From assembly GCA_964449285.1 (NCBI GenBank), contig CAYUZX010000004.1:1070-65069 (forward strand): a stretch of DNA of 64,000 nt, read 5' to 3'. This DNA comes from an uncultured Prolixibacteraceae bacterium. Lineage in GTDB: Bacteria > Bacteroidota > Bacteroidia > Bacteroidales > FEN-979. A program made the translations under genes and the position numbers. Within the stretch, counting starts at the first letter, position 1. The number at the start of each line of letters is the position of its first letter. Shown piece after piece: positions 14,041 to 57,631 of the stretch. The notes beneath the pieces are model-generated. The model ran no database searches, was not told the origin of the DNA, and was given only the letters and a program-made list of their open reading frames with translations.

Positions 14041-14064
14041 GGTGAAATGGTGAAAAAGCGAAAT
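14041..14064. repeat. Octamer tandem array GGTGAAAT x3
   Basis: ggtgaaat ggtgaaaa agcgaaat, in the flxA-like/flxB-like spacer. Confidence 0.85.
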
Positions 14065-14084
14065 TAAGTTTCATATTCTTCTAT

Positions 14085-14120
14085 ATTCCTGCATTGTTGC
14101 ATTGTTTCATTCCTGCATTG
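14085..14120. repeat. Octamer tandem array ATTCCTGC (complement GCAGGAAT) x4.5
   Basis: attcctgc attgttgc attgtttc attcctgc attg; contains the stop and the last 3 codons of the flxB-like gene. Confidence 0.9.
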
Positions 14121-15156
14121 AACCAGCAACCTTGTTAACGACTTCGAATATGCTGATGTTCACCGGGCAGGAGGTGGTGCACTTCCCGCAGCCGACACAG
14201 AGGTTCATCCCAAACCGCTCCTTGTAATAGACAAACTTGTGCATGGCGCGCTGACGCCAGCGCCGGTATTTTACCTGCCTTGGATTATGACCGCCTGCCA
14301 TCAGGGTAAAGTAGACATTATTACAGGAGTCGTAACTCTTGTATCTGACTCCTTCATCCCGTAGTTTCTCGTCGGAAATTTTAAAACAGTGACAGGTGGG
14401 GCACACAAACGCGCATGTATTGCAACTGACACAGGTGGCCGGAATATCTTCAAACGCTGGTGAATCAAACTTGCCCTGCATCTTTTCATTGATCTCATTG
14501 TAGTCCATCTTCAGGCGGAAAGAACTTGCAAACTTCACAAACTGCTTCTTCATCTCCTCCTGGGCAGAACCATTGGCAACCGATATGCCTTTTGCATTCT
14601 CTTTCAAAAATAGCTCCCCCTTTTCGGTGCGGGCCTGCAGATAAATCGTTCCGTTCAATCCGTTGATAACGGCTACGTCAAAGGCGTCCAGTTTCTCCAC
14701 ATCGTAGTCGAGAGAGGTACAAAAACAATGGGTGGAAGCCTCATTGCAACGGGTTGAAATCAGAATCGTATTCTCCCTGCGTTTTTCGTAATCGGTATCC
14801 ACGTAGTCCCACTTGTAGACGGCATCCAATACCTGAAGGCCACGTGCATCACAATGCTTGACACCCAAAATAACCCGTTTCCCTGCCAATGGATCTTCGT
14901 CGGTATCCATGAGTTCAGTCCCTTCACTAGTGGCCTTGTATTTCATCACCTTTGCTGATTTAGGGAAGAAGAGCGGTTTTATGCTCATCGTCGAAGGGAT
15001 GGGTGAATCAGTGTTGCATCTGGAAAGGGAATCAACCTTGATGAAATCAAATTTGCCAAATTTTTCCACCGGTGCGTAGGTATCATGAGCGCTGATGATT
15101 GCCTCATAAAACGCCTGAAGTCCGGCAGGATCAGTACTATATGTTGTCAGGTTCAT
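14107..15156 (-). CDS. 4Fe-4S dicluster protein (FlxB / AsrA-like)
   Basis: 349 aa; CVSCNTCAFVCPTCHC and CVGCGKCTTSCP ferredoxin motifs. The last three codons and the stop lie inside an octamer repeat array. Confidence 0.8.
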   Translation of the reverse strand: MNLTTYSTDPAGLQAFYEAIISAHDTYAPVEKFGKFDFIKVDSLSRCNTDSPIPSTMSIKPLFFPKSAKVMKYKATSEGTELMDTDEDPLAGKRVILGVKHCDARGLQVLDAVYKWDYVDTDYEKRRENTILISTRCNEASTHCFCTSLDYDVEKLDAFDVAVINGLNGTIYLQARTEKGELFLKENAKGISVANGSAQEEMKKQFVKFASSFRLKMDYNEINEKMQGKFDSPAFEDIPATCVSCNTCAFVCPTCHCFKISDEKLRDEGVRYKSYDSCNNVYFTLMAGGHNPRQVKYRRWRQRAMHKFVYYKERFGMNLCVGCGKCTTSCPVNISIFEVVNKVAGSMQE

Positions 15157-15168
15157 CGTTTAGAAAGG

Positions 15169-21171: not shown

Positions 21172-21951
21172 TTATTGCAATGTAAATTTAATCGGCAGGT
21201 TGTACGATACCCTGACAGGGATTCCGCGTTGTTTTCCGGGGGTCCATCTGGGCATGCTTTTCACAACCCTGATGGCCTCTTCGTCACATCCGCCTCCGAT
21301 TCCGCGGAGAACCTTCACATTACTTACCGAGCCGTTGGTCTCTACCACAAAGTTCACAAATACCCTTCCCTGGATGCCAAGTTCCTTGGCCTCCTCCGGA
21401 TATTTGATCGACTCACTGAGAAATTTATAGAGTTCTACATCTCCGCCTGGAAATTGCGGATTCTCTTCCACAACCGTGAAAATCTCCGCCTCTTTAGGTT
21501 GCTCGATAACCTGCGGTTTCTCTTCCACGAACTCGATCTCGGGCTCTTCGGAAGGAACCTCAGTGTTCCCTTTTTCAGCCAGCATATCCTGCTTTCCAAA
21601 ATCTGATTCCACCGTTGTGTCTTCAACAACTACCGGAGCTGTAAACTTCACCTTTTCCTGAAGTGCTTCAGGAGGAGGAGGAGGAGGAGGAGGAGGAGGA
21701 GGTTCATTCTGAGGCAAATCCAGCAACTCAGCGCCAACGCTCATCTCTTCTTTCAAAATCCGTCCTTTGTTAACAACCGCAGTGATGATCGGATAAGCCA
21801 CTACGCCAGCCATAACCAAGATGGCAATGATCGTAGAGACAATAATATACTTCTTATACTTCTTTCGAAGCATATATGCTCCATAGGTCTTGTTCCGGTT
21901 CTTAAAGACCATTTCCTCTAAGGATTCTACACGTTCGTGTTTTGCTGTCAT
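21172..21951 (-). CDS. tonB: Energy transducer TonB (paralog 2, poly-proline linker)
   Basis: 259 aa; same architecture as paralog 1. The C-terminal domain is nearly identical at protein level, and the linker holds 12 consecutive prolines. Confidence 0.9.
   Translation of the reverse strand: MTAKHERVESLEEMVFKNRNKTYGAYMLRKKYKKYIIVSTIIAILVMAGVVAYPIITAVVNKGRILKEEMSVGAELLDLPQNEPPPPPPPPPPPEALQEKVKFTAPVVVEDTTVESDFGKQDMLAEKGNTEVPSEEPEIEFVEEKPQVIEQPKEAEIFTVVEENPQFPGGDVELYKFLSESIKYPEEAKELGIQGRVFVNFVVETNGSVSNVKVLRGIGGGCDEEAIRVVKSMPRWTPGKQRGIPVRVSYNLPIKFTLQ
21671..21702 (-). repeat. (GGA)n / (CCT)n trinucleotide microsatellite, ~10.7 units, encoding the TonB poly-proline linker
   Basis: ggaggaggaggaggaggaggaggaggaggagg on the + strand; together with adjacent codons it encodes the 12-proline run in TonB paralog 2. 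Confidence 0.95.
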
Positions 21952-27617: not shown

Positions 27618-29033
27618 CTAATAGATGCCGAAGGTGAACTGATTGATGAATTCATAAACAGGGCTGTAAAGGCCAATGATGACAAGGCCGGCTATGCAGA
27701 TCGCTAAACCAAGGCGGGAATAACTATCGCTTTTAAAATAGGCGATCGGCCGGTCGCTCCGGTTCAGAAACATCGCTTTAACCACCAACAGATAGTAATA
27801 CAGCGAAATAATCGTGTTTAATACGGCGATCAAAACCAGGATGTAAAGCCCTTGTTGCGCAGCGGCGGCGAATAGAAAGAATTTTCCAAAGAAGCCAGCC
27901 ACAGGAGGGATGCCAGCCAGCGAAAAAAGCGCCAGCATCATGGTTAGGCTCAGCTTGGGATTGGTCCTGTAGAGTCCGTCATAATCATCGATGGTCTCTT
28001 TCCCGGTGCGGTTGGAAATTATGGATACTACGCCGAAAGCTCCAAGGTTCGAAAAGATATAGACCAGTACAAAGTAAATTACCGTGGTCATCCCAAGCTG
28101 GCTCTGCCCTATAATCCCAAGGAAGATAAACCCAGCCTGAGCAATGGAGGAGAATGCCAGGAATCGTTTGAGGTTGCGCTGGCGCATGGCAAAGAGATTA
28201 CCGATGGTCATAGTAAGGATAGAAGTAATATAAATCACATCCTTCCACATGATGGTGATTTTAGAGAAGACGGTATATAATAATATGGTGAAAACCATGA
28301 CAGCTGCACCTTTTGAGATTACCGAAAGGTATGAAGTGATGTTAATGGGTGCCCCTTCATAAACATCGGCAGTCCAAAGATGAAATGGAACGATGGAGAT
28401 TTTAAAAGCCATCCCGGCAAAGAAGAAGATGAATGCCAGGATCTGAAGTGGAGCGCCGTTCATGCCGTTCAACACTTCATCAAAATAGAGTGTGCCCACC
28501 GTACCATAGATCATGGAAAGGCCGTAAAGAAGAATCCCTGATGAGAGGGCAGAAGTGAAGATCAGCTTTACCCCTGCTTCAGCCGATTTCTCCTTTAACC
28601 GTTCAAAAGCTGCCAGTGCAGCGAGAGGGATTGTGGCAAGTTCCAGCCCGATGTAGAACATCAGGAAATCACCCGAAGAGAGCATGTACTCCATCCCGAT
28701 CAGGGTAGATAGCAGTAAAATGAAATATTCACTGATTTTTTCCCGGTTCTCCTCCTTTTTCAACCAATCCACCGACTGCAGGAAAACGATAAACACCCCA
28801 ATGGTCAGGATGTTTTTCATCAACAGGGTCAGGGGTGTAGTGATATACATTCCGCCAAAAAGGCTTCCGGTTGGCCCGGGGATGAATCCCATGATCATCA
28901 CTGCACCAAAAAGGATGAGGGCGGGCAGAATGATCTTCTGCTTCCGATTGGCCGGCAAGAATATCTCAATCACCAATAGAATCACTGTGATCAGCACCAG
29001 CAGCAATTCATGTCTCATGATCAGCATCAGCAT
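27618..29033 (-). CDS. nuoN: NADH-quinone oxidoreductase subunit N
   Basis: 471 aa antiporter-like polytopic protein; last gene of the nuo operon. Confidence 0.9.
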   Translation of the reverse strand: MLMLIMRHELLLVLITVILLVIEIFLPANRKQKIILPALILFGAVMIMGFIPGPTGSLFGGMYITTPLTLLMKNILTIGVFIVFLQSVDWLKKEENREKISEYFILLLSTLIGMEYMLSSGDFLMFYIGLELATIPLAALAAFERLKEKSAEAGVKLIFTSALSSGILLYGLSMIYGTVGTLYFDEVLNGMNGAPLQILAFIFFFAGMAFKISIVPFHLWTADVYEGAPINITSYLSVISKGAAVMVFTILLYTVFSKITIMWKDVIYITSILTMTIGNLFAMRQRNLKRFLAFSSIAQAGFIFLGIIGQSQLGMTTVIYFVLVYIFSNLGAFGVVSIISNRTGKETIDDYDGLYRTNPKLSLTMMLALFSLAGIPPVAGFFGKFFLFAAAAQQGLYILVLIAVLNTIISLYYYLLVVKAMFLNRSDRPIAYFKSDSYSRLGLAICIAGLVIIGLYSPVYEFINQFTFGIY

Positions 29034-29079
29034 GTCGTCTGAATTTTATATAGTCTTCTACTCTTATTTTCTTAGTCGT

Positions 29080-30582: not shown

Positions 30583-30596
30583 TCGTCAGCTGTTTA

Positions 30597-32513: not shown

Positions 32514-32522
32514 ACCTTATAT

Positions 32523-32557
32523 CAATTACGAATTATGAATTACGAATTACGAATTAT
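32523..32557. repeat. Heptamer tandem array GAATTAC x5
   Basis: caattac gaattat gaattac gaattac gaattat, in the nuoK-nuoL spacer. Confidence 0.95.
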
Positions 32558-32560
32558 ATA

Positions 32561-32590
32561 CGTCTTACGTCTCACGTCTTACGTCTTACA
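32561..32590. repeat. Heptamer tandem array CGTCTTA/CGTCTCA x4.3
   Basis: cgtctta cgtctca cgtctta cgtctta ca; abuts the nuoK stop codon at 32591. Confidence 0.95.
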
Positions 32591-32908: not shown

Positions 32909-32926
32909 ATGATCGTTCTTTAGCTG

Positions 32927-33915: not shown

Positions 33916-33919
33916 AATC

Positions 33920-35008: not shown

Positions 35009-35019
35009 GTTGAATGGTA

Positions 35020-36691: not shown

Positions 36692-36730
36692 TTTAGTTGA
36701 ACGTTTTTCTGCGAATTCATATCTTTTCTC

Positions 36731-41473: not shown

Positions 41474-41547
41474 GTTTACCCGATATTAGATGGCAAGTTT
41501 AATGAAAAACAAATTGATCCCTACAACTTGTTTGTAACCAGGTAAAA

Positions 41548-42093: not shown

Positions 42094-42157
42094 TCAATGC
42101 AGGAATGTAGGAATGCAGGAATGTAGGAATGCAGGAATGTAGGAATGCAGGAATTAT
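42094..42157. repeat. Octamer tandem array GGAATGTA/GGAATGCA x8 with 16-nt higher-order period
   Basis: tcaatgca followed by (ggaatgta ggaatgca) x3 and ggaattat; lies between the YdeI-frame stop (42091) and the four-helix-bundle gene stop (42154). Confidence 0.97.
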
Positions 42158-43680: not shown

Positions 43681-43721
43681 GATATGCCATTTTTAAAATT
43701 TATTACAAAGATCGTAAAAAA

Positions 43722-43756
43722 ACGTAAGAAGTAAGACGTGAGATGTGAGACGTAAG
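43722..43756. repeat. Heptamer tandem array ACGTAAG/ACGTGAG x5
   Basis: acgtaag aagtaag acgtgag atgtgag acgtaag, in the ferritin-atpG spacer; complement of the TCTTACG family. Confidence 0.9.
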
Positions 43757-43780
43757 AAAAGAAATGTCTTCCGCCTAAAA

Positions 43781-43817
43781 TCGTAATTCGTAATTCGTAA
43801 TTCGTAATTCGTAATTG
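43781..43817. repeat. Heptamer tandem array TCGTAAT x5.3 (perfect)
   Basis: Five perfect tcgtaat units, ending 8 nt before the atpG stop. Confidence 0.97.
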
Positions 43818-43825
43818 AAAAGGGG

Positions 43826-44716
43826 TTACCCTTTCAGCGCTTCCGCACCTGAAACAATCTCTATGATTTCCCGTGTGATCTGGTTCTGGCGGGCTTTGTT
43901 GTAAGAGATCCTGAGATCCTTCAGCAATTGCCGGGCGTTTTCTGTCGCCTGGTGCATAGCCGTCATTCTGGCGCCCATTTCAGCAGCATAGGAATCCAGC
44001 ATCGCTTTGAAAAGCTGGATCCTGAGGGTTTTAGGAATCAGTTCGTGTAAGATAGTCTCTTTGTCAGGCTCAAAGATATAGTCGGCCTCTACCTTCTTCA
44101 GGTTGGCTTTAACCTGAGTCTCATCCGGAACCAGTGGCAGGTACTGCTCAACCATTTGGCGTTGAACAGCTGCATTTTTAAACTGATTATATATCAATTC
44201 AATCCGGTCGAACTTTTTGTCGGTAAAAAGCTGCATCAATAACCGGGCTTTTCGGGCAACTGTTTCAAAGGTGAGGGCATCATAGATTTCATCCCAAAAT
44301 TCAATCACCTGGTAGTTCCGCTTCCTGAAGAAATCGGTCGCCTTTTTCCCGACGGTTATCAGGTCCACTTCATGATTTCTGTCTTGGGCTCCATAGGTGT
44401 TGTGGATCCTGTCGGCTGCCAGTTTGATGATGTTGGAGTTGAAAGCGCCACACAGTCCACGGTTGGAGGTGAATACAACCAGCAGAATCCGTTTGGGTTT
44501 TCGAACCTCCGTAAAACTACTTTCATTCGAATCTTCCGCGCTGGCACTCAGGTTTTGCATAATCTTCCGCAATTTGGCAGCATACGGTCTGAGCTTCAGG
44601 ATGGCGTTTTGAGCCCTTCTGAGCTTGGAAGCCGCCACCATCTTCATGGCACTGGTTATCTGTTCGGTCGATTTAACCGATGCAATCCTGATTCGTACTT
44701 CCTTTAATCCAGCCAT
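43826..44716 (-). CDS. atpG: F1 ATP synthase gamma subunit
   Basis: 296 aa; MAGLKEVRIRIASVKSTEQITSAMKMVAASKLRRAQ N-terminus and ITREIIEIVSGAEAL C-terminus. Confidence 0.95.
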   Translation of the reverse strand: MAGLKEVRIRIASVKSTEQITSAMKMVAASKLRRAQNAILKLRPYAAKLRKIMQNLSASAEDSNESSFTEVRKPKRILLVVFTSNRGLCGAFNSNIIKLAADRIHNTYGAQDRNHEVDLITVGKKATDFFRKRNYQVIEFWDEIYDALTFETVARKARLLMQLFTDKKFDRIELIYNQFKNAAVQRQMVEQYLPLVPDETQVKANLKKVEADYIFEPDKETILHELIPKTLRIQLFKAMLDSYAAEMGARMTAMHQATENARQLLKDLRISYNKARQNQITREIIEIVSGAEALKG

Positions 44717-44721
44717 CTTTT

Positions 44722-44756
44722 CGAATTACGAACTACGAATGATGAATTACGAATTG
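44722..44756. repeat. Heptamer tandem array CGAATTA x5 (degenerate)
   Basis: cgaatta cgaacta cgaatga tgaatta cgaattg; begins 5 nt upstream of the atpG start codon. Confidence 0.9.
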
Positions 44757-44764
44757 AATATTCA

Positions 44765-44820
44765 CTTTTCTTCCTTCTTCCTTTTTCCTTCATCTTTCTT
44801 TCCTCTTCCTTCGTCTTTTT
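44765..44820. repeat. Pyrimidine-only degenerate heptamer tract TCCTTCT x8
   Basis: cttttct tccttct tcctttt tccttca tctttct ttcctct tccttcg tcttttt; only two purines in 56 nt. Confidence 0.85.
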
Positions 44821-44850
44821 CAAGCGCCTAAGCTTTGGCGTAAGCAATCA

Positions 44851-44920
44851 TCCTACGTCTTACCTCTTACCTCTCACGTCTTACGTCTCACGTCTTACGT
44901 CTCACGTTCTACGTCTCACA
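44851..44920. repeat. Heptamer tandem array TCTTACG/TCTCACG x10
   Basis: tcctacg tcttacc tcttacc tctcacg tcttacg tctcacg tcttacg tctcacg ttctacg tctcaca; ends 2 nt before the atpA stop. Confidence 0.95.
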
Positions 44921-44922
44921 TT

Positions 44923-46512
44923 TTACCTCTGCCCCTCATACTTCCTGGAAATATCAGCAGCCGCTTTCTCCATTGCCTTCTCATCCTCTTCGAGCAATTT
45001 TCCCTCACGGAGATGCTCCAGAACTGCTTTATGATGAGATACCATATAATGAAGGTACTCCACTTCAAAATCCATTACGCTCCTAACCGGTACATTCTTC
45101 AACAAACCCCTGGTGCCGCAATAGATGATGGCGATCTGTTGTTCCACAGACATCGGAGAGTATTGTGCCTGTTTCAGGATCTGCACGTTTCTGGCACCTT
45201 TATCCAGCACAGCTTTGGTAGCTGCATCCAAATCGGATCCGAATTTGGAGAAGGCCTCCAGTTCGCGGTATTCGGCCTGAGCCAGTTTCAAGGTGCCGGC
45301 AACCTTTTTCATGGATTTTATCTGGGCATTCCCTCCAACACGGGATACAGAGATCCCTACGTTGATAGCCGGGCGAATCCCCGAATTGAAGAGTCCTGTC
45401 TCCAGGAAGATCTGTCCGTCGGTGATCGAGATGACATTGGTTGGAATATAGGCCGTGACATCACCAGCTTGAGTTTCGATGATAGGGAGCGCCGTGAGAG
45501 AACCACCCCCTTTCACCAAATGCCGGATCGATTCAGGAAGGTCATTCATTTTCTTTGCCACGGCATCGGAAGAGATGATCCTGGCCGCCCGTTCCAGCAA
45601 GCGGGAGTGGAGGTAAAAGACATCTCCCGGATAGGCTTCCCGCCCGGGAGGACGACGAAGCAGGAGGGATACTTCACGGTAAGCAACAGCCTGTTTCGAC
45701 AGATCATCATAGATCACCAGGGCCGGACGCCCCGTATCCCTGAAGAACTCGCCGATAGCAGCTCCGGCAAAGGGTGCATAAAACTGCATGGCAGCGGGAT
45801 CGGATGCGGTAGCCGTAACGATCACGGTATAGGCCATCGCCCCTTTCTCCTCAAGGGTCTTCAAAATATTTGCCACAGTGGAGCCCTTCTGTCCGATAGC
45901 TACATAGATGCAGTAGACCGGTTCTCCCTTTGTATAAAACTCCCGCTGGTTGATGATTGTATCAATCACGATGGCAGTTTTTCCAGTCTGCCTGTCGCCG
46001 ATAATCAACTCACGCTGTCCTCTGCCAATCGGGATCATGGCATCAATTGCCTTTATCCCGGATTGCAGCGGCTGATTTACCGGTTGTCGGTAAATTACAC
46101 CAGGTGCTTTCCGTTCCAGCGGCATTTCATAACGTTCGCCTCCGATTTTTCCCTTTCCGTCGATCGGTTCTCCCAGCGTGTTGATGACCCTGCCAAGAAG
46201 TCCGTCGCCAACCTCAATTGAGGCAATCCTGCGGGTTCTCTTTACAGTGTCGCCCTCTTTGATATCATAAGCCTCCCCCAGTAAGACAACTCCCACATTA
46301 TCCTCTTCCAGGTTAAGTACGATGGCCCTGATGCCATTTTTCTCAAACTCAACCAACTCGCCCGATTCGGCGTTGGTCAGACCATAGATACGGGCAATGC
46401 CGTCACCCACCTGCAAAACGATGCCAATCTCTTCAAGTTCGGCAACATTATGATAGCCTGCCAACTCTTTCCGTAAAATTGCAGATACTTCAGCTGGTTT
46501 TATTTCTGCCAT
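44923..46512 (-). CDS. atpA: F1 ATP synthase alpha subunit
   Basis: 529 aa; Walker A GDRQTGKT and the [27 protein letters not shown] motif. Confidence 0.97.
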
Positions 46513-46513
46513 A

Positions 46514-47074
46514 TTAAAAACCTTTTTTATACAAATTAATTCTGGCGGTGCTTTTTCGCATCCGCTCTATCTGATAATAGATACTGGCATCATACTGCAT
46601 GTCGCTCCAGTTCAAGATAAATCCTCCGATAATTTCCGGATCGATCTTCTGAATCAGCTCAATCTGCCATTTCGTATAATCCTTCATGATGGTAGTAACC
46701 CGGTTCCGGATCGCTTCGGTGACCGGAATAGCAGTCGTGAGAACGACCGGTAAAATCTCTTTATACTCCTTGTATAACGTGATCAGCTTACGGGCGATCT
46801 CCGGGATATAAACCTCTCTGTTCTTACGAACCAGGATAAGAAGGAACTTCATGGTCATCACGTTAAACCGGCTTTCAAACAGATCCTTCAGGATTTTCTC
46901 CTTTTTCTTTTCACTAATCACCGGGCTCTTCAGAACCAGCACAAAGATCTTGTTTTCCTGACAAACGGAAACCAGTTCGCGTGCATCCGAATAGATGGCC
47001 TCCTCCTGTTTCTTTTCAACAGCAAGTTCAAAAAGCGCCTTCGCATACCGTTCCGATACCAGGGATATCCTCAT
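46514..47074 (-). CDS. atpH: F1 ATP synthase delta subunit
   Basis: 186 aa; N-terminus [10 protein letters not shown]; operon position between atpF and atpA. Confidence 0.85.
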
Positions 47075-47086
47075 CAGGAATCTCTT

Positions 47087-47581
47087 TTAATTAAAATGGA
47101 TCTTGTCCATTTGCTGTTTTACATATACTTCCTGCTGTTTGGCATCAGCAAGTTCATGTTCCAGAATTTTGGTTGCGATCTCAAGCGACAGTTCCGCAAG
47201 TTGATTTTTAAGATCGGTCATTGCAGCCATCTTTTCATTCTCAATGCTCTCCTTGGCGCTGGCAATGATTCGTGATGCCTCTTCTTTGGCTTTCTCCTTC
47301 GATTCTTCGATGATGACATCCCTCACCTTCCGTGCATCGCTTAAAATGGCATCCCGTTCATCTTTAGCCTGGTGTAACAGCTCTTCGTTGCTGAACTGAA
47401 GCTGCTTCATCTCTTCCTTTGCCCTGTCGGCCGCATGCAATGCATCATCGATGGATGTTTCACGGTCTTTCAGAGACTGGAGGATAGGCTTCCAGGCAAA
47501 CTTCCGGAGAATCAGGAGAAGGATCAGAAATGGCAATGCCATCCAGAAAATCAGACCCAATCCGGGGGTTATCAGTTCCAT
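47087..47581 (-). CDS. atpF: F0 ATP synthase subunit b
   Basis: 164 aa; single N-terminal TM followed by a long charged helix. Confidence 0.88.
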   Translation of the reverse strand: MELITPGLGLIFWMALPFLILLLILRKFAWKPILQSLKDRETSIDDALHAADRAKEEMKQLQFSNEELLHQAKDERDAILSDARKVRDVIIEESKEKAKEEASRIIASAKESIENEKMAAMTDLKNQLAELSLEIATKILEHELADAKQQEVYVKQQMDKIHFN

Positions 47582-47657
47582 ATCTTATTGTAATTTACAT
47601 TCATTAAAATTCTTCATGACTCAACCAACCGTTAAGCCATGAAGAACCGGTTGCCTG

Positions 47658-47927
<270 letters not shown>

Positions 47928-47960
47928 TTATTTAAATGTAACATGCAAAATGTAAATCCT

Positions 47961-47990
47961 CGTCATTCGTAATTCGTAATTCGTAATTCA
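47961..47990. repeat. Heptamer tandem array CGTAATT x4.3
   Basis: cgtcatt cgtaatt cgtaatt cgtaatt ca; ends 1 nt before the atpB stop, in the atpB-atpE spacer. Confidence 0.95.
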
Positions 47991-47991
47991 T

Positions 47992-49179
47992 TTAATGGTG
48001 TTCCGTTTCAATTGTCGCCAACCCGAAATAGAGAGCTGATAACAAGGTAAATACATATGCCTGGATAAATGCAACAAGGATCTCCAGCAAGTCCATAAAT
48101 ACAATAAATGCCACTGAAACAATCGAAACTCCGAGTCCCAATGCCACGTTGATCGATCCGAAGATGAAAATCAGGCTGACGAAACCAAGCACGATGATGT
48201 GGCCTGCTGCCATGTTGGCAAAAAGTCGCACCATTAATACAAACGGCTTGGTAATGATCCCAATGATTTCCACCACAGGCATCAGGGGAACAGGAAGTTT
48301 CAACCACCAGGGGACGCCCGGTGTGTTGATGATATCAACCCAGTAATGCTTGTTGCCGCTTATGGTAGTCAGAACCAGCGTAAACACAGCCAACACCATG
48401 GTTATGGCAATGTTGCCTGTTACGTTTGCCCCACCCGGGAAGATTGGGATAATTCCAAGGAGGTTATTCAGTAAAATAAAAAAGAATATCGTCAAAAGGA
48501 AAGGCATGAACTTTTCATATTTCTTCTCTCCGATTGAACTTTTTGCGATGTCGTCACGGATGAAGATAATAACGGGTTCCAGAAGGGATTGCATCCCTTT
48601 TGGCGCTGATTTGGGATTCCGTTTGTACCGGTTAGCCACAGAGATGAAAATCCACAACAGCAGAAAACAACTGATGAGCAATGCAAACACTGTTTTTGTA
48701 ATTGAGAAATCAAAAACGGTTTTACCCGATACAACTTCAGCATGAATTTTCCCATGCTCCAACACAAATCCCTTGTATGCGTGAGTAGGGTTATGAAATT
48801 TGGATGATAAGAAGGCGTAAATCTCTCCGTCATATAGCAAAATAACAGGCAACGGGATGGTGATATGCGCATGTCCCAATGTGGCAATATGCCATTCGTG
48901 ATTGTCCACTACATGCTCCATGATCATCTTGCCGGCATCGAATTCCTGCTCAACGATCAAATCCTCATCGTACTGAAAGGTAGTATCTGTTAAAGATTCA
49001 GTTAAAGCATGTGATTTTTCAGAGGCATTGGCCACCGATCCCGGAGAAACAATTAGTGCCAGGAAAAGAAAGAGAATAAAAGTGAAGAACCTGAAGTGCT
49101 GCGTTCGAACCATAGCTGCTGTTACATGCTGATTTTCGGGCTGCAAGTTTACGAACAATTCACGAAACATGAAAATCAA
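47992..49179 (-). CDS. atpB: F0 ATP synthase subunit a
   Basis: 395-aa ORF; C-terminal conserved region LMVRLFANMAAGHII. The true start may be the internal ATG at 49113 (MVRTQHFRFFTFILF...). Confidence 0.9.
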   Translation of the reverse strand: MIFMFRELFVNLQPENQHVTAAMVRTQHFRFFTFILFLFLALIVSPGSVANASEKSHALTESLTDTTFQYDEDLIVEQEFDAGKMIMEHVVDNHEWHIATLGHAHITIPLPVILLYDGEIYAFLSSKFHNPTHAYKGFVLEHGKIHAEVVSGKTVFDFSITKTVFALLISCFLLLWIFISVANRYKRNPKSAPKGMQSLLEPVIIFIRDDIAKSSIGEKKYEKFMPFLLTIFFFILLNNLLGIIPIFPGGANVTGNIAITMVLAVFTLVLTTISGNKHYWVDIINTPGVPWWLKLPVPLMPVVEIIGIITKPFVLMVRLFANMAAGHIIVLGFVSLIFIFGSINVALGLGVSIVSVAFIVFMDLLEILVAFIQAYVFTLLSALYFGLATIETEHH

Positions 49180-51216: not shown

Positions 51217-52593
51217 ATGACTCTTAAAAAATCAAAAAAGAAACTTCTGATCATCATTGCGGCAGTCATCGTTCTTGCCATTATCATTGTACTGGCTGTT
51301 ATCAAAGGCGGTAAGAATGAGGGGATCAAAGTCTCTGTAGAAATGGTAGCCAAACGGACCATTGTCCAGACTGTCTCTTCCAACGGTAAAATCCAGCCTG
51401 AAAGAGATGTTAAAATATCACCTTACATCTCCGGTGAAGTGGTTGAACTCTATGTGAAAGAGGGCAACCAGGTTAAGAAGGGGGATCTGCTGGCCAAGAT
51501 CGACCCGGAGATTTACATCTCACAGTACGATCAGAGTGTGGCTTCCCTGAATACCCAGAAAGCCAATGAGTCTAATTCCAACGCACGTCAGGTACAGATG
51601 GAGGCACAATTCGAGAATGCCCGCCTGAACTTTGAACGCCAGAAAAAACTTTTTGAACAGAACGTGATTTCCAAGGCTGATTTTGATCAGGCCAAAGCCA
51701 ATTTCGAAGTGGCTCAGGCACAAGTTACCTCAGCAAAACAAGATGTAAAGGCTTCGGAGTTCATGGTGAAGAGCTCGGAAGCAGCGTTGAAGCGCTCCAA
51801 AGAGGATCTCACAAGAACAGCAATTTTTGCCCCTAACGAAGGGACCGTTTCCAAGTTGAATGTATTGAAAGGGGAGCGTGTTACCGGGGCATCCCAGTTT
51901 TCCAGTGGTACAGAGATCATGCGGCTGGCTAACCTCAATGAGATGGAAGCCCAGGTTGAAGTGAATGAAAATGATATCATCAGGGTTACCCTCAACGATA
52001 CGGCTCTCATTGAAGTGGATGCTTACCTGAACCGGAAATTCAAAGGGGTTGTAACTGAGATCGCCACGTCGGCCAATACTACCGGCGTAAGCGTTGATCA
52101 GGTAACCAATTTTAACGTCAAAATTCATCTACTGAAGGAGTCGTATGAAGATCTGCTTGATCCTGATAAACCCTTTTATAGCCCCTTTCGTCCGGGAATG
52201 TCCTGTACGGTGGAGATCCAAACCGAGACTGCTTACAATGTGCTAACCGTGCCTATCCAGGCTGTAACAACACGTGTGTCGCAAGATACATTGGATAAGC
52301 TGAATGCTCAAAACAGAGAAACTGAGCAACGTGGTGACCGTGAAATTGAACGAGTCACTACTAAAAAGACCGAGGAGATCCAGGAGTGTGTATTCATATT
52401 TGAAGATGGGATTGCCAAAAAACAGGATGTCAAAACAGGCATCCAGGATAATACCTATATCCAGATCGAATCGGGTTTATCCGATAGCCTGGAGGTGATT
52501 ACTTCACCCTATTCGGTAGTATCCAAAACCCTGAAAGATGGTGACAAAGTCAAGAAAGTTGACCGCAAAGATCTTTTTAGCGTAAGCAAATAA
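51217..52593 (+). CDS. HlyD/MacA-type efflux periplasmic adaptor subunit
   Basis: 458 aa; N-terminal TM anchor, long coiled-coil hairpin, barrel-sandwich motifs. Confidence 0.85.
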   Translation: MTLKKSKKKLLIIIAAVIVLAIIIVLAVIKGGKNEGIKVSVEMVAKRTIVQTVSSNGKIQPERDVKISPYISGEVVELYVKEGNQVKKGDLLAKIDPEIYISQYDQSVASLNTQKANESNSNARQVQMEAQFENARLNFERQKKLFEQNVISKADFDQAKANFEVAQAQVTSAKQDVKASEFMVKSSEAALKRSKEDLTRTAIFAPNEGTVSKLNVLKGERVTGASQFSSGTEIMRLANLNEMEAQVEVNENDIIRVTLNDTALIEVDAYLNRKFKGVVTEIATSANTTGVSVDQVTNFNVKIHLLKESYEDLLDPDKPFYSPFRPGMSCTVEIQTETAYNVLTVPIQAVTTRVSQDTLDKLNAQNRETEQRGDREIERVTTKKTEEIQECVFIFEDGIAKKQDVKTGIQDNTYIQIESGLSDSLEVITSPYSVVSKTLKDGDKVKKVDRKDLFSVSK

Positions 52594-53354
52594 TGTCGCT
52601 GATTCTGGCCCTTGAAACGGCTACACCTGTATGTTCTGCTACCCTTGCACGTGATGGAGAGATCCTCTCCCTCCTCGAGTCGAATGCCCCCAACGCTCAC
52701 TCTTCCGTGTTAACAGTCTTTATTGAAGAGCTCTTCCGTGAAGCCTCTTTGCGCTATGCTGACCTCGATGCTATATCGGTTAGTATGGGCCCAGGGTCCT
52801 ATACCGGTCTTCGTATCGGGGTAGCGGCAGCGAAAGGTCTCTGCTTTGCGCTCGACAAACCTTTAATTGCTATTCCTACGCTGGAGGCGATGGCAGCAGG
52901 GATGATTTACGAATTAGGCATTACGAATTACGAATTCAGTAACCTTCTTGAAAATCCGGTATCAGGTATCAGACATCAGGCATCGAAACCCGAAACTCTC
53001 TTCTGTCCCATGATCGATGCCCGCCGGATGGAAGTCTATTGTGCTGTGTATGATAAGAATCTAAAGGAGATACGTTCCACAGAAGCTCTGCTAGTTGAAA
53101 AACATTCGTTTGACGATCTGCTGGCAGCGCACGCGATTCTGTTCGCCGGAACAGGAGCCGAAAAATGCCGGGAGCTCCTTTCGCACAAATCGAACGCTTT
53201 GTTTCTGGAGAACTTTCAAGCATCAGCAAGATTCATGATCGCTCTTTCAGAAACACGATTTGTTAAAAACCAGCTTGAGAACCTGGCTTATTTTGAACCC
53301 TTTTATCTGAAGAATTTCATCGCCGGGAAGCCCAAAGTCAAAGGATTGAACTGA
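52593..53354 (+). CDS. tsaB: tRNA t6A37 threonylcarbamoyltransferase complex subunit TsaB, carrying a repeat-derived insertion
   Basis: 253 aa; motifs ILALETAT and VSMGPGSYTGLRIGVAAAKG. An internal segment is encoded by two heptamer arrays (52905-52983). Confidence 0.88.
   Translation: MSLILALETATPVCSATLARDGEILSLLESNAPNAHSSVLTVFIEELFREASLRYADLDAISVSMGPGSYTGLRIGVAAAKGLCFALDKPLIAIPTLEAMAAGMIYELGITNYEFSNLLENPVSGIRHQASKPETLFCPMIDARRMEVYCAVYDKNLKEIRSTEALLVEKHSFDDLLAAHAILFAGTGAEKCRELLSHKSNALFLENFQASARFMIALSETRFVKNQLENLAYFEPFYLKNFIAGKPKVKGLN
52905..52939 (+). repeat. Heptamer array AATTACG x5 inside the tsaB coding sequence
   Basis: atttacg aattagg cattacg aattacg aattcag; translated in frame as (I)YELGITNYEFS. 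Confidence 0.9.
52956..52983 (+). repeat. Heptamer array CCGGTAT/CAGGTAT x4 inside the tsaB coding sequence
   Basis: ccggtat caggtat cagacat caggcat; translated as PVSGIRHQA. Confidence 0.85.
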
Positions 53355-53370: not shown

Positions 53371-53434
53371 CACTTTTTCACTACCTCACTACTTCACTGC
53401 CTCGCCATTTCACCATTTCACAAAATCTCCATTT
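53371..53434. repeat. Octamer-periodic tract CACTNNNT grading into CACCATTT, x8
   Basis: cacttttt cactacct cactactt cactgcct cgccattt caccattt cacaaaat ctccattt. The second half is the complement of the GGTGAAAT family. It fills the convergent tsaB/T9SS-gene spacer. Confidence 0.85.
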
Positions 53435-54894
53435 CAGCGAAGAAGCACACATCGTTTTGTAAACGTTACTTCATCTGTTTTTAGCCTGTAGAGATAGATC
53501 CCACCTGGCAGGTATTGCCCTGTATCATCTGTTCCGTTCCAGAGTATGTTGAATTCTCCGGCCTGGTGAGGTGAATCCACCAGTGTTTTCACCTTCATCC
53601 CCTTCACATTGAAAACGTCCATCTGAACCGTTGTTGGCTTAGCGATGGAATACTCAAATGTAGTGGATGTGTTGAAGGGATTGGGGTAGTTCATCCTGAG
53701 TGTACTCTTTCTGGTCGAAGCCAGATCCCCGATCCCCATGTAGAGTCCTTCATTTACGGCAATTGTCACATGCTGTGTATCTATTTCGCTGACCAGCATC
53801 AGGTCATCATACAGAAACTCTATCCTAGCGTCAATGGGTAGCGGAATCACCACATTCAGGTCAACCGATTCACCAGGAGCAAGGGTGTGCGGGAATGTTG
53901 TAAATGGCCATGGAACCACCAGCCAGGTAAAAGGAGCCGTTACGGATGACTCTTGTTGAACAAATAGGAGGTCCAGATCCACTGATGTGGTATTGGAGAT
54001 GGTGACGATCTGCCCTTCGAGGCACTGCTGCTCATTTTCATAAAAAAGGGTGTCGGCAGTGAGGGCGAGATCCGGTGTTATGTAGGAAGTATCACCTGCA
54101 TGGCATCCGATACCGGTAATTATCTCTTCGGAGGTATTGTCGAGAACAAAGGCTAACAATTCACAGTTCTCCATGATGTAATCGGTGGCGGAATAGTCGT
54201 AGGTAAAGGTTCTTCTGTAAAAGGTTCCGGCCATTGCATCGGCGACAATCGGATCGCCCCACTGTCCGACAAAAGCTTCACGAAAAGTATGCTTATGTGT
54301 ATATGGGTACGAGCCACCCGATTGATGTGAGATAAGGTTATTTTCGGCCAGAGTAACCATCAAATTGTGTTCGCCCGGGAAATCTTCCGTATAATAAATA
54401 TCTACCACGACGGTGAGAATACTATTTCCGGGATCATAACTGGTAGCCATTCCTACATTCATCGGTGAAGGTTCGGCCATTATGGTGTTGGCATAAGAGG
54501 GCCATACGGAACGGCTCATGAGCCGCTCTGGGGGTGACCATAGCCGGCGCTGAACAAAGGAACTTGGCATGAATCTGGTGGTGCCGCAATAAGGCGTCAT
54601 GTAGAGGTTGTCAGCATAGTGGCGACGAAAATCCGGATCTCCCGTGGTGGGCGTTGTATAATTCGAGTTGAACGGATGATAGGCGACACAGAATGCCCGG
54701 TCAGGATGGTTAGCGAGGATCTGCGCCATCACCAGGTGGCCGGCAGGACAGTTCGGGCAATTAACGCCAGTGAATTCTTCCAGAATAGCATTTTTATCCA
54801 GGGGTTCAATGGGAACAAAGTGCTGTGCCATTATCAGACATGGGATAAGGACCGCAACAAATCCCAGGCTTACAGATTGTAAAAAAGTTTTCAT
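53434..54894 (-). CDS. T9SS-sorted surface protein with N-terminal thioredoxin-like/Omp28-related region
   Basis: 486 aa; signal peptide; EEFTGVNCPNCPAGH motif; C-terminal T9SS sorting domain (NYPNPFNTSTTFEYSI...GIYLYRLKTD). Confidence 0.8.
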   Translation of the reverse strand: MKTFLQSVSLGFVAVLIPCLIMAQHFVPIEPLDKNAILEEFTGVNCPNCPAGHLVMAQILANHPDRAFCVAYHPFNSNYTTPTTGDPDFRRHYADNLYMTPYCGTTRFMPSSFVQRRLWSPPERLMSRSVWPSYANTIMAEPSPMNVGMATSYDPGNSILTVVVDIYYTEDFPGEHNLMVTLAENNLISHQSGGSYPYTHKHTFREAFVGQWGDPIVADAMAGTFYRRTFTYDYSATDYIMENCELLAFVLDNTSEEIITGIGCHAGDTSYITPDLALTADTLFYENEQQCLEGQIVTISNTTSVDLDLLFVQQESSVTAPFTWLVVPWPFTTFPHTLAPGESVDLNVVIPLPIDARIEFLYDDLMLVSEIDTQHVTIAVNEGLYMGIGDLASTRKSTLRMNYPNPFNTSTTFEYSIAKPTTVQMDVFNVKGMKVKTLVDSPHQAGEFNILWNGTDDTGQYLPGGIYLYRLKTDEVTFTKRCVLLR

Positions 54895-55032: not shown

Positions 55033-56214
55033 ATGGCAGAAACAATTCAATTTACGGCTCCTGATCACTACTTGGTAGATGATCTGCTTGCCGATGAACA
55101 CAAGATTGTCCGCAATGCTGTTCGTGCCTGGGTGAACCGGTATGTGAAACCAATTATTGAAGAGAATTTTGAGAAAGCCCAGTTTCCAATACAGCTGGTG
55201 AAAGAGATGGGACGGATAGGCGCCTTCGGTCCATTTATTCCGGAAGAGTATGGTGGGCCGGGTCTCGACTACATTTCATACGGATTGATCATGCAGGAGC
55301 TTGAGCGGGGCGACTCTGGTGTACGTTCCATGGCTTCGGTGCAATCCTCCCTGGTCATGTTCCCTATCTATTCTTATGGAACTGAAGAGCAGAAAAAAAA
55401 GTACCTGCCTCGCCTGGCTACTGGCGAACTCATCGGTTGTTTCGGTCTCACGGAGCCCAATCACGGCTCCGATCCAGGTGGCATGAAGACCCACGTACAG
55501 GATAAGGGTGACCATTACCTCCTGAATGGCTCTAAGATGTGGATTACCAACTCCAGCATTGCCGATGTGGCAGTCGTTTGGGCCAAAGATGAAGAGGGTG
55601 TGATCCGGGGATTCATCGTAAAGAAGGGATGGGAAGGTTTTACCGCCCTGGAAACACACGGAAAATGGTCGTTACGGGCATCCGTAACCGGAGAACTTGT
55701 ATTCGACAATGTGAAGGTTCCGAAAGATCATATCCTGCCAAACGTAAAAGGGTTGAAAGGGCCTCTCAGCTGCCTCAATTCAGCCCGGTTCGGGATTGCC
55801 TGGGGAGCTATCGGAGCCGCCATGGATTGTTATGATGCCGCGTTGCGGTATTCTCTCGAACGGATTCAGTTCGACAGGCCCATTGCTGGATTTCAGCTTC
55901 AGCAGAAAAAACTGGCAGAAGCCCTCACCGAAATCACCAAGGCGCAATTGCTTGCATGGCGGATGGGAACGCTGCGAAATGAAGGCCGGGTTACAGCTGC
56001 CCAGATCTCTATGGCCAAGAGGAACAATGTTGCCATGGCGCTCAACATTGCCAGGGAAACACGCCAGATCCTGGGAGCGATGGGGATCACCAACGACTTC
56101 CCGATGATGCGTCATATGATGAATCTCGAATCTGTGATCACCTACGAAGGGACACATGATATCCATCTGCTGATTACGGGAGCGGAGATTACAGGACTAC
56201 AGGCTTATAAGTAG
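55033..56214 (+). CDS. gcdH: Acyl-CoA dehydrogenase, glutaryl-CoA dehydrogenase-like
   Basis: 393 aa; GCFGLTEPNHGSDPGGMKT and YEGTHDIHLLI motifs. Confidence 0.85.
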   Translation: MAETIQFTAPDHYLVDDLLADEHKIVRNAVRAWVNRYVKPIIEENFEKAQFPIQLVKEMGRIGAFGPFIPEEYGGPGLDYISYGLIMQELERGDSGVRSMASVQSSLVMFPIYSYGTEEQKKKYLPRLATGELIGCFGLTEPNHGSDPGGMKTHVQDKGDHYLLNGSKMWITNSSIADVAVVWAKDEEGVIRGFIVKKGWEGFTALETHGKWSLRASVTGELVFDNVKVPKDHILPNVKGLKGPLSCLNSARFGIAWGAIGAAMDCYDAALRYSLERIQFDRPIAGFQLQQKKLAEALTEITKAQLLAWRMGTLRNEGRVTAAQISMAKRNNVAMALNIARETRQILGAMGITNDFPMMRHMMNLESVITYEGTHDIHLLITGAEITGLQAYK

Positions 56215-56247
56215 GGAGGTAGCGAAATAAAATCCAAAGCAATATAT

Positions 56248-56255
56248 TATCTTTG
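56248..56255 (+). promoter_or_regulatory. -7 box TATCTTTG upstream of ispG
   Basis: Matches TAnnTTTG, 21 nt upstream of the ATG at 56276. Confidence 0.4.
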
Positions 56256-56275
56256 TCCTGAACGAGATAAATCCG

Positions 56276-57631
56276 ATGTCCGAAAATCCTTTCAAACGAT
56301 TTCCTACGCGTGTGATCCAAATAGGCGACCTGCCAATGGGTGGTTCTTATCCTATCCGCGTTCAGTCGATGACCAATACCGACACCCAGAACACGGAGGG
56401 AACGGTGGCCCAGGCGATCCGTATGATCGAAGCAGGTTGTGAATATGTCCGAATCGCTGTGCCCGGGATGAAAGATGTAGAGAACCTCCGGGAGATCAAG
56501 AAGCGAATCCGTGCAGCCGGATTTACCACTCCACTGATTGCCGATGTTCATCTCAACCCTAAGATCGCGGAATTTGCTGCTACCATCGTGGAAAAGGTGA
56601 GGATCAACCCGGGGAACTATCTGCCAGGGTCGAGGGTAGAGGGTAGAGGGTCGAAAGACGAAGGTCGAAAGACGAAGGACGAGGGACGAGGGACGAGGGA
56701 CGAGGGACAGGGTTCAAGGGTCAAGGGTCAAGGGTCAAAGATCCAGGAGCCAGAACCGATGCGAAGCGGAGTTCGGCGAAGCCAATCCAGCTCTCCAATC
56801 ATCATAAATCCGGTATCCGGTATCCGGCATCCGGTATCAGATCAGCAGTATTTCGATGAACTATCGTTCCGTCTGGCACCTCTGTTAAAGATTTGCCGGG
56901 ATCATGGAACGGCTGTCCGTATCGGGGTGAACCACGGATCGCTTTCTGATCGGATCATGGAACAATATGGAGATACGCCGAAAGGGATGGTTGAATCGGC
57001 GCTGGAGTTTGCCCGGATCTGTGAAGTTCACAACTTCCGAAACCTTGTATTATCGCTTAAAGCCTCCAACACCCGTGCGATGATTCAGGCAAACCGGCTG
57101 CTGGTTAAGCGGATGAAAGCAGAGGGAATGGATTATCCCTTACACCTTGGTGTTACCGAAGCCGGAGCCGGAGAGGATGGCCGGTTGAAGTCGGCCGTGG
57201 GGATCGGTAGCCTGCTGGCCGACGGGATTGGCGATACGATCAGGGTATCAATCACCGAAGATCCGGAACAAGAGATCCCGGTAGCTTACGGTATCCTCCA
57301 GGCAACAGGCGTTCGTATCACCCGTACCGAATACATCTCCTGCCCAACCTGTGCCCGTACACTTTTCGATATGCAGGTGTCAGTACAAAAAATCAAAGAG
57401 CTGACCCGTCACCTCTCCGGATTGAAAATCGCCGTGATGGGATGCATCGTGAACGGTCCGGGCGAAATGGCCGATGCCCACTACGGATATGTTGGAGCCG
57501 GCAAAGGGAAAGTGAACCTCTACAAAGGCCAGAATCTGGTGAAAAAGAATATCGATGAATCGGTGGCGGTAGAAGAGCTGATTGAGTTGATTAAAGAGGG
57601 CGGAGACTGGAAAGACAATGAGCAAGAATGA
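56276..57631 (+). CDS. ispG: 4-hydroxy-3-methylbut-2-enyl diphosphate synthase (IspG/GcpE), carrying a repeat-derived insertion
   Basis: 451 aa; motifs IRVQSMTNT, RINPGN, RIGVNHGSL, GVTEAG, ISCPTCAR, GCIVNGPGE. The loop after RINPGN is encoded by heptamer arrays (56627-56844). Confidence 0.93.
   Translation: MSENPFKRFPTRVIQIGDLPMGGSYPIRVQSMTNTDTQNTEGTVAQAIRMIEAGCEYVRIAVPGMKDVENLREIKKRIRAAGFTTPLIADVHLNPKIAEFAATIVEKVRINPGNYLPGSRVEGRGSKDEGRKTKDEGRGTRDEGQGSRVKGQGSKIQEPEPMRSGVRRSQSSSPIIINPVSGIRHPVSDQQYFDELSFRLAPLLKICRDHGTAVRIGVNHGSLSDRIMEQYGDTPKGMVESALEFARICEVHNFRNLVLSLKASNTRAMIQANRLLVKRMKAEGMDYPLHLGVTEAGAGEDGRLKSAVGIGSLLADGIGDTIRVSITEDPEQEIPVAYGILQATGVRITRTEYISCPTCARTLFDMQVSVQKIKELTRHLSGLKIAVMGCIVNGPGEMADAHYGYVGAGKGKVNLYKGQNLVKKNIDESVAVEELIELIKEGGDWKDNEQE
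56627..56738 (+). repeat. 16-unit heptamer array (GGGTCGA/GGGTAGA/AAGACGA/GGGACGA/GGGTCAA) inside the ispG coding sequence
   Basis: Units read directly from the sequence. They translate with 7-aa periodicity as GSRVEGR GSKDEGR KTKDEGR GTRDEGQ GSRVKGQ GS. Confidence 0.95.
56810..56844 (+). repeat. Heptamer array CCGGTAT x5 inside the ispG coding sequence
   Basis: ccggtat ccggtat ccggcat ccggtat cagatca; translated as PVSGIRHPVSDQ. Confidence 0.92.

Follow-up and report, generated by a model that had tools for sequence, protein, structure and literature searches.

Arrays and composite modules in the window

[quoted passage not shown] Between these genes, and in part within them, lie short tandem arrays with a period of 7 or 8 nt (Table 1), which we regard as probable members of a population of small dispersed elements. 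Tandem Repeats Finder, run on the whole window, detected 21 distinct arrays between 14037 and 56838 with 2.4-12.6 copies each and 833 nt in total, and it placed an array of period 7 or 8 at every coordinate named in a preliminary description of this DNA. Our own heptamer scan found 11 strong heptamer arrays, whereas 0.1 were expected from second-order Markov shuffles. The 14 heptamer units include two families of five (at most one mismatch, in any rotation or on either strand), and a single family of at least five among random units has a probability of P = 0.009. Arrays make up 43% of the bases in the ten array-bearing spacers and, as had been described, nearly all of the nuoK-nuoL spacer (64 of 77 nt). 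The reported nearness to stop codons was likewise found, since nine stops are overlapped by arrays or lie 0-9 nt away from them, namely those of nuoK, nuoB, atpA, atpB, atpG and of the SNF2, IVP, Omp28-like and Fer4_22 genes. Moreover, array sequence supplies the last six codons and the stop of nuoB as well as the last four codons and the stop of atpA.

The unit at 36668 has to be read as AAATAGYG instead of GGTGAAAT, and the array at 44765, taken earlier for the complement of a GARGGAC set, is of the GGAAGAA type. GTRAGAC and GARGGAC had been listed as separate sets, but they grade into each other inside single arrays and therefore form one superfamily. None of the three units of the short tandemly repeated repetitive (STRR) sequences STRR1-3 (CCCCAGT, TTGGTCA and CAACAGT) is present in the window. 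Further copies of the arrays lie in about 20 kb of same-species DNA next to the window, i.e., the families recur beyond it. An Rfam search of the entire window at gathering thresholds returned no family and no rRNA. A perfect (AGG)11 run at 21670-21702, inside the open reading frame (ORF) 21172-21951(-), has a period unrelated to the heptamer families.

Several arrays are joined into composite modules. Module M1, GTRAGAC(n)-x-TTCGTAA(n) when read on the strand with TAA in every frame, occurs in four places of the species: in the nuoK-nuoL and atpA-atpG spacers, where it is in mRNA sense and ends 5-13 nt ahead of the start codons of nuoL and atpG, inverted in the atpG-ferritin spacer, and in a DUF218 ORF 10 kb outside the window, where it is in frame and in the open orientation. 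The pairing and order of arrays given in the preliminary description were borne out, GTRAGAC being followed by TTCGTAA three times (32524-32589, 43722-43816 and 44722-44930). Module M2, GAGGGAC(n)-GGGTCAA(n)-x-ATCCGGY(n), is read in frame within ispG and a 621-aa ORF. A glycosyltransferase-9 (GT9) ORF carries a shortened version, likewise in frame, and the last array of the module is also found in tsaB. The pairs 52905-52984 and 56626-56838 had been regarded as spacers, but they are located in frame inside tsaB and ispG. Altogether, in-frame composites are carried by five ORFs of the species, three of which lie just outside the window. The ATCCGGY arrays share the end CCGGYATCAG at three loci, and those of tsaB (52956-52984) and ispG (56808-56838) are translated in the same frame to the peptide NPVSGIRH. 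Arrays within ORFs always preserve the reading frame; the M1 strand with TAA in three frames occurs only outside ORFs or as the supplier of a stop codon, and inside ORFs only the open strand is used. The typical building block consists of about five units and about 32 nt. Because the composites recur with the same order and boundaries at unrelated loci, copying of defined elements is suggested rather than local growth, and this shared order and these shared boundaries constitute the strongest evidence for elements that were probably copied and not grown on the spot. Both the in-frame coding arrays and the link to PF05635 discussed below go beyond the preliminary description.

In the GT9 ORF, positions 8165-8196 of the same-species contig L373 encode the closely similar peptide HPASGIRHPAS, so that the same low-complexity motif is found in unrelated enzymes. 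Furthermore, atpG is bracketed by the inverted M1 duplicate (43722-43816 and 44722-44930). In the RNA fold of 43700-44940, GTRAGAC is predicted to pair with GTCTYAC and TTCGTAA with AATTACG, forming a two-tier long-range stem around the entire atpG cistron. This bracket is missing in sister species: L205 has no arrays at this place, and the arrays of L207 are non-complementary.

Table 1. Tandem arrays and associated genes of the window
Position	Strand	Period	Feature	Location or remark
14037-14055		8	array	Tandem Repeats Finder
14090-14120		8	CCTGCATT-type octamer array	overlaps stop codon of Fer4_22 gene
27618-37663	-		nuo operon	Pfam
32524-32556		7	AATTACG array, 4.7 copies, five AATT cores	TTCGTAA half of M1 in mRNA sense; ends 10 nt before nuoL start
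32559-32589		7	GTCTTAC array, 4.4 copies	GTAAGAC half of M1 in mRNA sense; begins 1 nt past nuoK stop
36671-36690		8	AAATAGYG octamer array, 2.5 copies	nuoB-nuoC spacer
36731-36790		7	GTCTTAC/GTCTCAC array, 8.6 copies	end of nuoB
37822-37858		8	AATGCAGG octamer array	distal part of downstream arm
37865-41928			inserted segment, 4.2 kb	SNF2-family helicase (SWIM, DUF3670 domains) 37865-41473(-) and DUF1801 gene 41548-41928(+)
42096-42154		8	AATGCAGG/AATGTAGG octamer array, 7.4 copies	downstream arm, abuts IVP stop codon
42154-42507	-		PF05635 (IVP/S23p) gene	117 aa
42583-42601		8	complementary octamer array, 2.4 copies	upstream arm of IVP cassette
			DUF3109 and ferritin genes	between PF05635 gene and atp operon; Pfam
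43722-43758		7	GTAAGAC-type array, about 5 copies	downstream of atpG; outer part of inverted M1 copy
43781-43816		7	TCGTAAT array, 5.1 copies, five AATT cores	9 nt past atpG stop
43826-49179			atp operon	Pfam
44722-44755		7	AATTACG-type array, 4.9 copies, five cores	ends 5 nt before atpG start
44768-44818		7	TTCTTCC-type (GGAAGAA) array, about 6 copies	middle of atpA-atpG spacer
44851-44930		7	GTCTYAC array, about 11 copies	end of atpA
47960-47989		7	TCGTAAT array, 4.3 copies	2 nt past atpB stop
52593-53354			tsaB	Pfam
52907-52984	+	7	AATTACG (4.3 copies) and CAGGTAT/CCGGTAT (3.4 copies) arrays	starts at 52907 and 52961; in frame inside tsaB; encode ...IYELGITNYEF...NPVSGIRHQAS...
53378-53436		8	CACTACCT and CCATTTCA octamer arrays	starts at 53378 and 53405; fill convergent tsaB/Omp28-like spacer; second overlaps Omp28-like stop
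56276-57631			ispG	Pfam
56626-56838	+	7	M2: AGGGTMG/GACGARG/GAGGGAC arrays and AGGGTCA array, 69-nt spacer, ATCCGGY array (4.4 copies)	56626-56738 and 56808 onwards; in frame, ispG linker after INPGNY

The PF05635 cassette and the bracketing of IVP genes

The IVP protein of the window has PF05635 as its sole Pfam match (E = 2e-25) and matches PDB entry 2RLD with E = 1e-28. Its gene is located between the DUF3109 gene and the nuo operon, and not in helix 25 or 45 of 23S rRNA, and it is bracketed by octamer arrays, the arms of the cassette, which are reverse complements of each other. In the minimum-energy as well as the centroid RNA fold the arms pair and enclose the ORF (z = -2.6). As such stems resemble those of rRNA intervening sequences (IVS), which are cut by RNase III, the predicted pairing suggests that the cassette may be an IVS-type element outside rRNA. 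The cassette is orthologous in the sister species L205 and L207, where the same octamer unit is present upstream in about 11 and about 7 copies, respectively, followed by a conserved promoter-like stretch, and a homologue of 73% identity in L208 has kept the same arms in a different gene context. L205 and L207 lack the 4.2-kb segment with the helicase gene here, and in both of them the IVP gene is directly followed by the upstream region of nuoA. In the window, the arm array (..ATTCCTGCATTGA..) is found at both junctions of the insertion, as after recombination at the array, and the array at 37822-37858 is consequently the detached distal part of the downstream arm. This insertion within an arm indicates that the arrays do act as recombination sites. 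In addition, the array at 14090-14120 repeats the IVP arm unit as a solo copy and has both flanks and boundaries in common with the arm (TATATTCCTGCATT...CCTGCATTGA). A search for a second IVP paralogue in about 20 kb of same-species sequence adjoining the window was negative.

Two AATTACG loci, L018 and the Nostoc locus L092, in which an IVP gene lies between inverted AATTACG arrays, provided the lead to a wider comparison. Metagenome contigs were scanned with an alignment of three IVP proteins; the sample comprised the 80 best matches to one subfamily, and bracketing was counted for the 66 homologues with at least 200 nt on either side. Short-period arrays were present on both sides of 57 of these 66 genes, as compared to 4-13% of other ORFs. 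The arm period was 7 in 111/114 cases with a median of 4.6 copies, the upstream arm ending a median of 12.5 nt before the ATG and the downstream arm beginning a median of 2 nt past the stop codon. The two arms of one gene are complementary to a median score of 17.5 as compared to 8 for arms of different loci, and a score of at least 15 was reached by 44/66 IVP genes but only by 1-4% of other ORFs. Whereas the units vary between loci, the two arms co-vary, and the divergence of the arm unit tracks that of the IVP protein. Of 170 arrays in IVP loci, 117 contain AATT in their unit. Among 25 arrays located at a distance of more than 200 nt, 17 have a unit that matches the local IVP arm (4.9 expected). 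The array lengths peak sharply at 31-33 nt, corresponding to five 4-nt cores and four 3-nt spacers, with side peaks near 25 and 39 nt. Judged from this sample, bracketing by complementary heptamer arrays with a modal number of five cores is the rule for the PF05635 family. No paper on a general bracketing of free-standing PF05635 genes was found, the exception being the heptamers noted in the IVS of Coxiella.

A shared palindromic 4-nt core (AATT, ACGT, CCGG, TCGA or TGCA) was considered as a general property of the units, as would be expected of restriction-site-like arrays, and rejected, as it was present in 32% of them as compared to 35% under the null expectation; only AATT in the IVP loci stands out. 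Downstream of the IVP gene in L018 (540-1030), TCGTAAT/TCCTAAT arrays are part of a higher-order repeat of about 100 nt with at least five copies, which shows that larger tandem structures can have arrays as their units. According to a figure legend in PMC10910872, a large screen for new CRISPR systems gave '23S rRNA IVP' a CRISPR-association score; the repeat finders used there might have responded to the heptamer arrays beside the gene.

Stability, orthologous sites and distribution

The arrays are real and stable within the species, and they are not an assembly artefact. Two independent assemblies of the same species (L372 and L373) are 99.99% identical to the window without any gap, and in two further species pairs of 99.7% identity all arrays are free of indels. 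IspG with its arrays is 451 aa long in each of at least six contigs, which come from NCBI, JGI and ENA and differ only by point changes within the arrays. Polymorphism in unit number between close assemblies, as contemplated in the preliminary description, was accordingly not observed at 0.01-0.3% divergence.

Syntenic loci of sister species were available from L001 (GCA_016926765.1), from L002 and L207 (GCA_014860625.1), from L003 and L004, and from L205 and L206; the nearest named proteins are from metagenome-assembled genomes (MAGs) labelled 'Bacteroidales bacterium'. IspG homologues with 63-80% identity occur in many Bacteroidales MAGs and differ mostly at the linker, where they carry 7-residue-periodic peptides such as RGTKDEG and SGIRHPA, i.e., translated heptamer arrays. 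In four species the ispG linker holds the same families in the same order with other copy numbers (e.g., ACGAGGG x21 in L002), and the internal site of tsaB holds arrays in all four, with unrelated units. The array after atpB (47960-47989 in the window) is orthologous in five species, although partly decayed (L001, L003, L205 and L207). The atpA-atpG spacer comprises 206 nt in the window, 102 nt with the same composite in L207 and 0 nt (TAAATG) in L205. At nuoK-nuoL and nuoB-nuoC, L205 retains arrays with other units and periods (ACGTGAATA 9-mers and GACGARG), and its counterpart of the 36671-36690 site bears CACGCTATT 9-mers. Taken together, the comparison indicates that the arrays are old, vertically inherited and evolving in concert, with sites occasionally gained or lost.

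A GC-rich hairpin (..GGACGAGGCATGCCTCGTCC..; conserved flanks AAAGGTTCAAATCACGTA) resembling repetitive extragenic palindromic (REP) elements recurs in the spacers of the sister species, sometimes between two arrays (L001 1515-1705; L003 2822-2933; L205 568-722; L207 573-685 and 3665-3780). It is not present in the matching spacers of the window.

Three tandem copies of TCGTAAT were found in more than 120 stretches of GTDB representative genomes, which is a lower bound, as compared to about 0.3 expected by chance. Among the matches listed, about half are from Nostocales and other cyanobacteria and about 28 from Bacteroidota of several orders, the remaining ones including Ignavibacteria, Acidobacteria, Chloroflexi and Planctomycetes. 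Period 7 dominates these AATTACG loci (448 rows vs. 41 for period 6), and the STRR1-3 units co-occur there. The ends of 149 AATTACG arrays from many phyla are phase-specific, AATT(CGTAATT)n, and all five AATTACG arrays of the window possess five cores. Between co-directional genes no orientation bias of AATTACG arrays was detected (39 vs. 33), convergent spacers are favoured over divergent ones (32:14), and the six copies located inside ORFs are all in the open orientation. ORF-less hairpins of the form AATTACG(n)-loop-CGTAATT(n) are present in Acidobacteria, Chloroflexi and Bacteroidota. In an Acidobacteria MAG (L014, 4035-4310), the gene rpsQ for ribosomal protein S17 is bracketed by inverted AATTACG arrays within a ribosomal protein operon. 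Besides atpG in the window, this is an occasional case of an ordinary, essential gene in an IVS-like bracket.

Among viral contigs of IMG/VR, AATTACG was found in 65 stretches and AATTAGG in 51, and the three IVP genes on AATTACG contigs each adjoin AATTACG arrays. Of two composition-matched controls on viral contigs, ATCAGTA x3 gave 42 matches (many copies on few contigs) and the second gave 2; given these counts, the idea that AATTACG is a uniquely privileged unit is suggestive only and was not retained. In L279-L320 (IMG/VR), ATCAGTA is dispersed at up to 10 arrays per 9 kb, and some viruses carry dense heptamer-array populations of their own.

Origin of the arrays

Arrays of heptanucleotides were recognised in cyanobacteria by 1990 and were later encountered in scattered bacteria, but no origin or function is generally accepted. 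In many bacteria, heptamers are the most frequent long simple sequence repeats (SSR), and replication slippage is the accepted mechanism of their growth (Mrazek 2007 as summarised in PMC4679880). Like the STRR or 'long SSR' (5-11 nt) sequences, the window has tandem heptamers of few unit families, mostly intergenic and with unlike arrays adjacent to each other, and its AATTACG arrays are identical to those beside STRR1-3 units in many Nostocales genomes. In contrast to STRR sequences, they reside in an uncultured Bacteroidales host, the units differ save for AATTACG, and there are fixed composite modules, in-frame copies in essential genes, and octamers and 9-mers in the same population. The statement in the preliminary description that no equivalent is on record for Bacteroidota was inaccurate, as TAACTGA and 'other heptamer direct repeats' were reported from five Bacteroidetes (MacGregor 2015; PMC4679880). 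The TAACTGA arrays, found in Beggiatoaceae, Cyanobacteria and these Bacteroidetes, stop all frames on the forward strand, so that ORFs end there, and lie inside ORFs in reverse copies. They have in common with the arrays described here the position at gene junctions (there with 2-40 copies), stop codons in all frames on one strand while the other is tolerated in ORFs, and a patchy distribution across phyla. However, the unit is a different one, modules or a link to a gene are not described in PMC4679880, and the picture for the orientation upstream of starts is mixed here: M1 is in forward orientation before nuoL and atpG, its other copies are inverted or in ORFs, and AATTACG is divided 39:33.

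With respect to the IVP cassette, the closest comparison is the 23S rRNA IVS known from Leptospira and Coxiella (PMC4990558), which in Coxiella contains an S23p ORF and a 28-bp terminal stem cut by RNase III, with 3-4 tandem GACAGAT heptamers, variable in number among strains, right before the S23p ATG. The window cassette likewise has a PF05635 ORF enclosed by terminal inverted repeats with a predicted long stem; unlike the IVS, it lies outside rRNA and has octamer arms, excision by RNase III is an analogy only, and the bracketing rule for free-standing genes is not part of PMC4990558. Similarity also exists to REPIN-RAYT systems (PMC3116915, PMC3337134), in which a vertically inherited single-copy gene is flanked by inverted copies of a dispersed intergenic repeat and repeat populations are long persistent. 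In contrast to these, the protein is a four-helix bundle and not an HUH (Y1) tyrosine transposase, the repeats are tandem arrays and not palindromic hairpins, and the partnership of gene and repeat is drawn by analogy. Palindromic elements of Rickettsia are said to have been found by Ogata et al. in 2000 to be inserted in frame in protein-coding genes. With these elements and the Borg repeats (PMC9879509) the window shares in-frame repeat DNA at tolerant surface positions that encodes low-complexity peptides; the Rickettsia elements, however, are palindromes rather than tandem arrays, and the Borg tandem repeats are of local origin and reported to be fast-evolving, whereas the window arrays are stable within the species and recur as modules.

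Following this, we propose that the arrays probably represent a population of small dispersed elements built of short-period tandem arrays, of the STRR or 'long SSR' kind, in a Bacteroidales lineage. New copies would arise by rare copying of whole modules, either in a transposition-like step or by ectopic recombination or gene conversion between arrays; slippage would then alter the copy number, and conversion would homogenise the units within a genome. Copies would survive only where they are harmless, i.e., right after stops, before starts and in surface linkers, and complementary copies in one transcript could pair into long stems similar to the IVS stems cut by RNase III. Of the dispersing element or templated mechanism suggested in the preliminary description, recurrence and module copying are supported, while nothing speaks for templated synthesis. 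Several observations weigh against dispersal. No copying enzyme or mechanism was found, and target-site duplications, looked for by eye around modules and cassettes, were not seen. As the arrays remain stable, and in many cases orthologous, across about 15-25% protein divergence, mobility, if any, must be rare, and ectopic gene conversion alone might account for the shared units. The three sister species are approximately equidistant, so that gain and loss at atpA-atpG cannot be polarised. The resident IVP arms are octamers, and in about 84 kb of the species none of the families GTRAGAC, AATTACG and CCGGYAT was found to form the arms of an IVP gene, so that these families are tied to IVP cassettes by analogy. 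Moreover, the 42 viral matches of a control heptamer mean that wide occurrence is not unique to AATTACG.

A protein partner acting in trans could be involved: a pentameric S23p, with one subunit per heptamer core, might maintain or spread the arrays alone or together with a polymerase, a reverse transcriptase or a recombinase. This would be in line with the inverted repeat copies on either side of the IVP gene, further copies of which are dispersed at other places, with the five AATT cores of the modal IVP arm and the frequency of AATT in arrays of IVP loci (117/170), with an arm unit that diverges along with the protein, and with vertical inheritance of the gene in synteny, as seen for RAYT genes. 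Xanthomonas S23p is cited as a homopentamer (PMC4990558), PDB entries 2RLD and 2GSC contain five chains each, and the PF05635 family is homologous to Avd, the accessory protein of the reverse transcriptase of diversity-generating retroelements (PMC10053308). Nevertheless, such a partnership is doubtful in our judgement, as binding of arrays by S23p is purely hypothetical, an RNA stem explains the complementarity of IVP arms equally well, and the arm copy number in the window lineage is 2.4, 7 or 11 and not 5. Furthermore, most arrays (about 200 among 1.4 Mb of viral loci and 149 among 0.9 Mb of genomic loci) are not close to an IVP gene, the protein lacks a catalytic domain, and the authors of the Coxiella study consider S23p not even to be expressed there (PMC4990558). 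The related notion that the pentamer reads the five-core arms and that the gene with its inverted arms is the 'master' copy of the dispersed repeats, with S23p as an Avd-like protein in a RAYT/REPIN-like system, is offered by analogy only and would seem unlikely.

A role of the arrays as cis-regulatory mRNA sites, which would tune translation or stability by binding S1, cold shock proteins (Csp) or CsrA-like proteins, as considered for TAACTGA, or would provide unstructured leaders for initiation independent of a Shine-Dalgarno sequence in Bacteroidota, might be supported by the M1 copies in mRNA sense shortly upstream of nuoL and atpG, by the conservation of the array after atpB in five species and by the precedent for regulatory repeats (PMC4679880). 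Some spacers also fold worse than shuffles (z = +1.7 and +1.9), but others fold as well as or better than shuffles, and arrays as makers of unstructured spacers were discarded, as the z-scores from +1.9 to -3.1 follow no consistent trend. Considering that AATTACG is unbiased with respect to transcription, that the same modules lie antisense (43722-43816 and 47960) and inside ORFs, and that the atpA-atpG spacer has a length of 0 nt in L205, we deem a regulatory origin quite unlikely. Independent local growth, in which slippage expands chance duplications and the shared units reflect mutational or compositional bias, agrees with the accepted role of slippage in long SSR (Mrazek 2007 as summarised in PMC4679880) and with the drift in copy number and unit at orthologous sites. 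It is nevertheless very improbable, because it does not account for two families of five among 14 arrays, for multi-array composites of the same order and boundaries at unrelated loci and in five ORFs, for phase-specific array ends and quantised lengths, or for the solo copy at 14090 with both flanks in common with the IVP arm. The argument of the preliminary description against slippage stands insofar as copying of modules is favoured, yet local changes in copy number, unit and unit length imply that slippage and gene conversion also matter. Hypermutable contingency loci would be suggested by the classic role of short tandem repeats as substrates of phase variation, and assembly artefacts by several short contigs that end at arrays. 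Given that no array differs in copy number between independent assemblies at 0.01-0.3% divergence, that arrays are identical across the NCBI, JGI and ENA assemblies, that ORF-internal arrays are always in frame, and that no array lies in a promoter or a 5' coding region, both explanations are extremely improbable.

The arrays have practical consequences: they break short-read assemblies, they can be mistaken for CRISPR-like repeats or spacers, and genome annotation should reckon with C-termini and stop codons that consist of array sequence. The composite modules can be traced by presence and absence in sister species, and the in-frame insertions in IspG and TsaB show how new protein linkers arise. 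The bracketing of PF05635 genes connects arrays of the STRR type with rRNA intervening sequences, which are just as unexplained, and S23p is a concrete candidate protein to test. If true, a partnership of S23p and arrays would jointly explain the origin of cyanobacterial STRR sequences and of rRNA intervening sequences.

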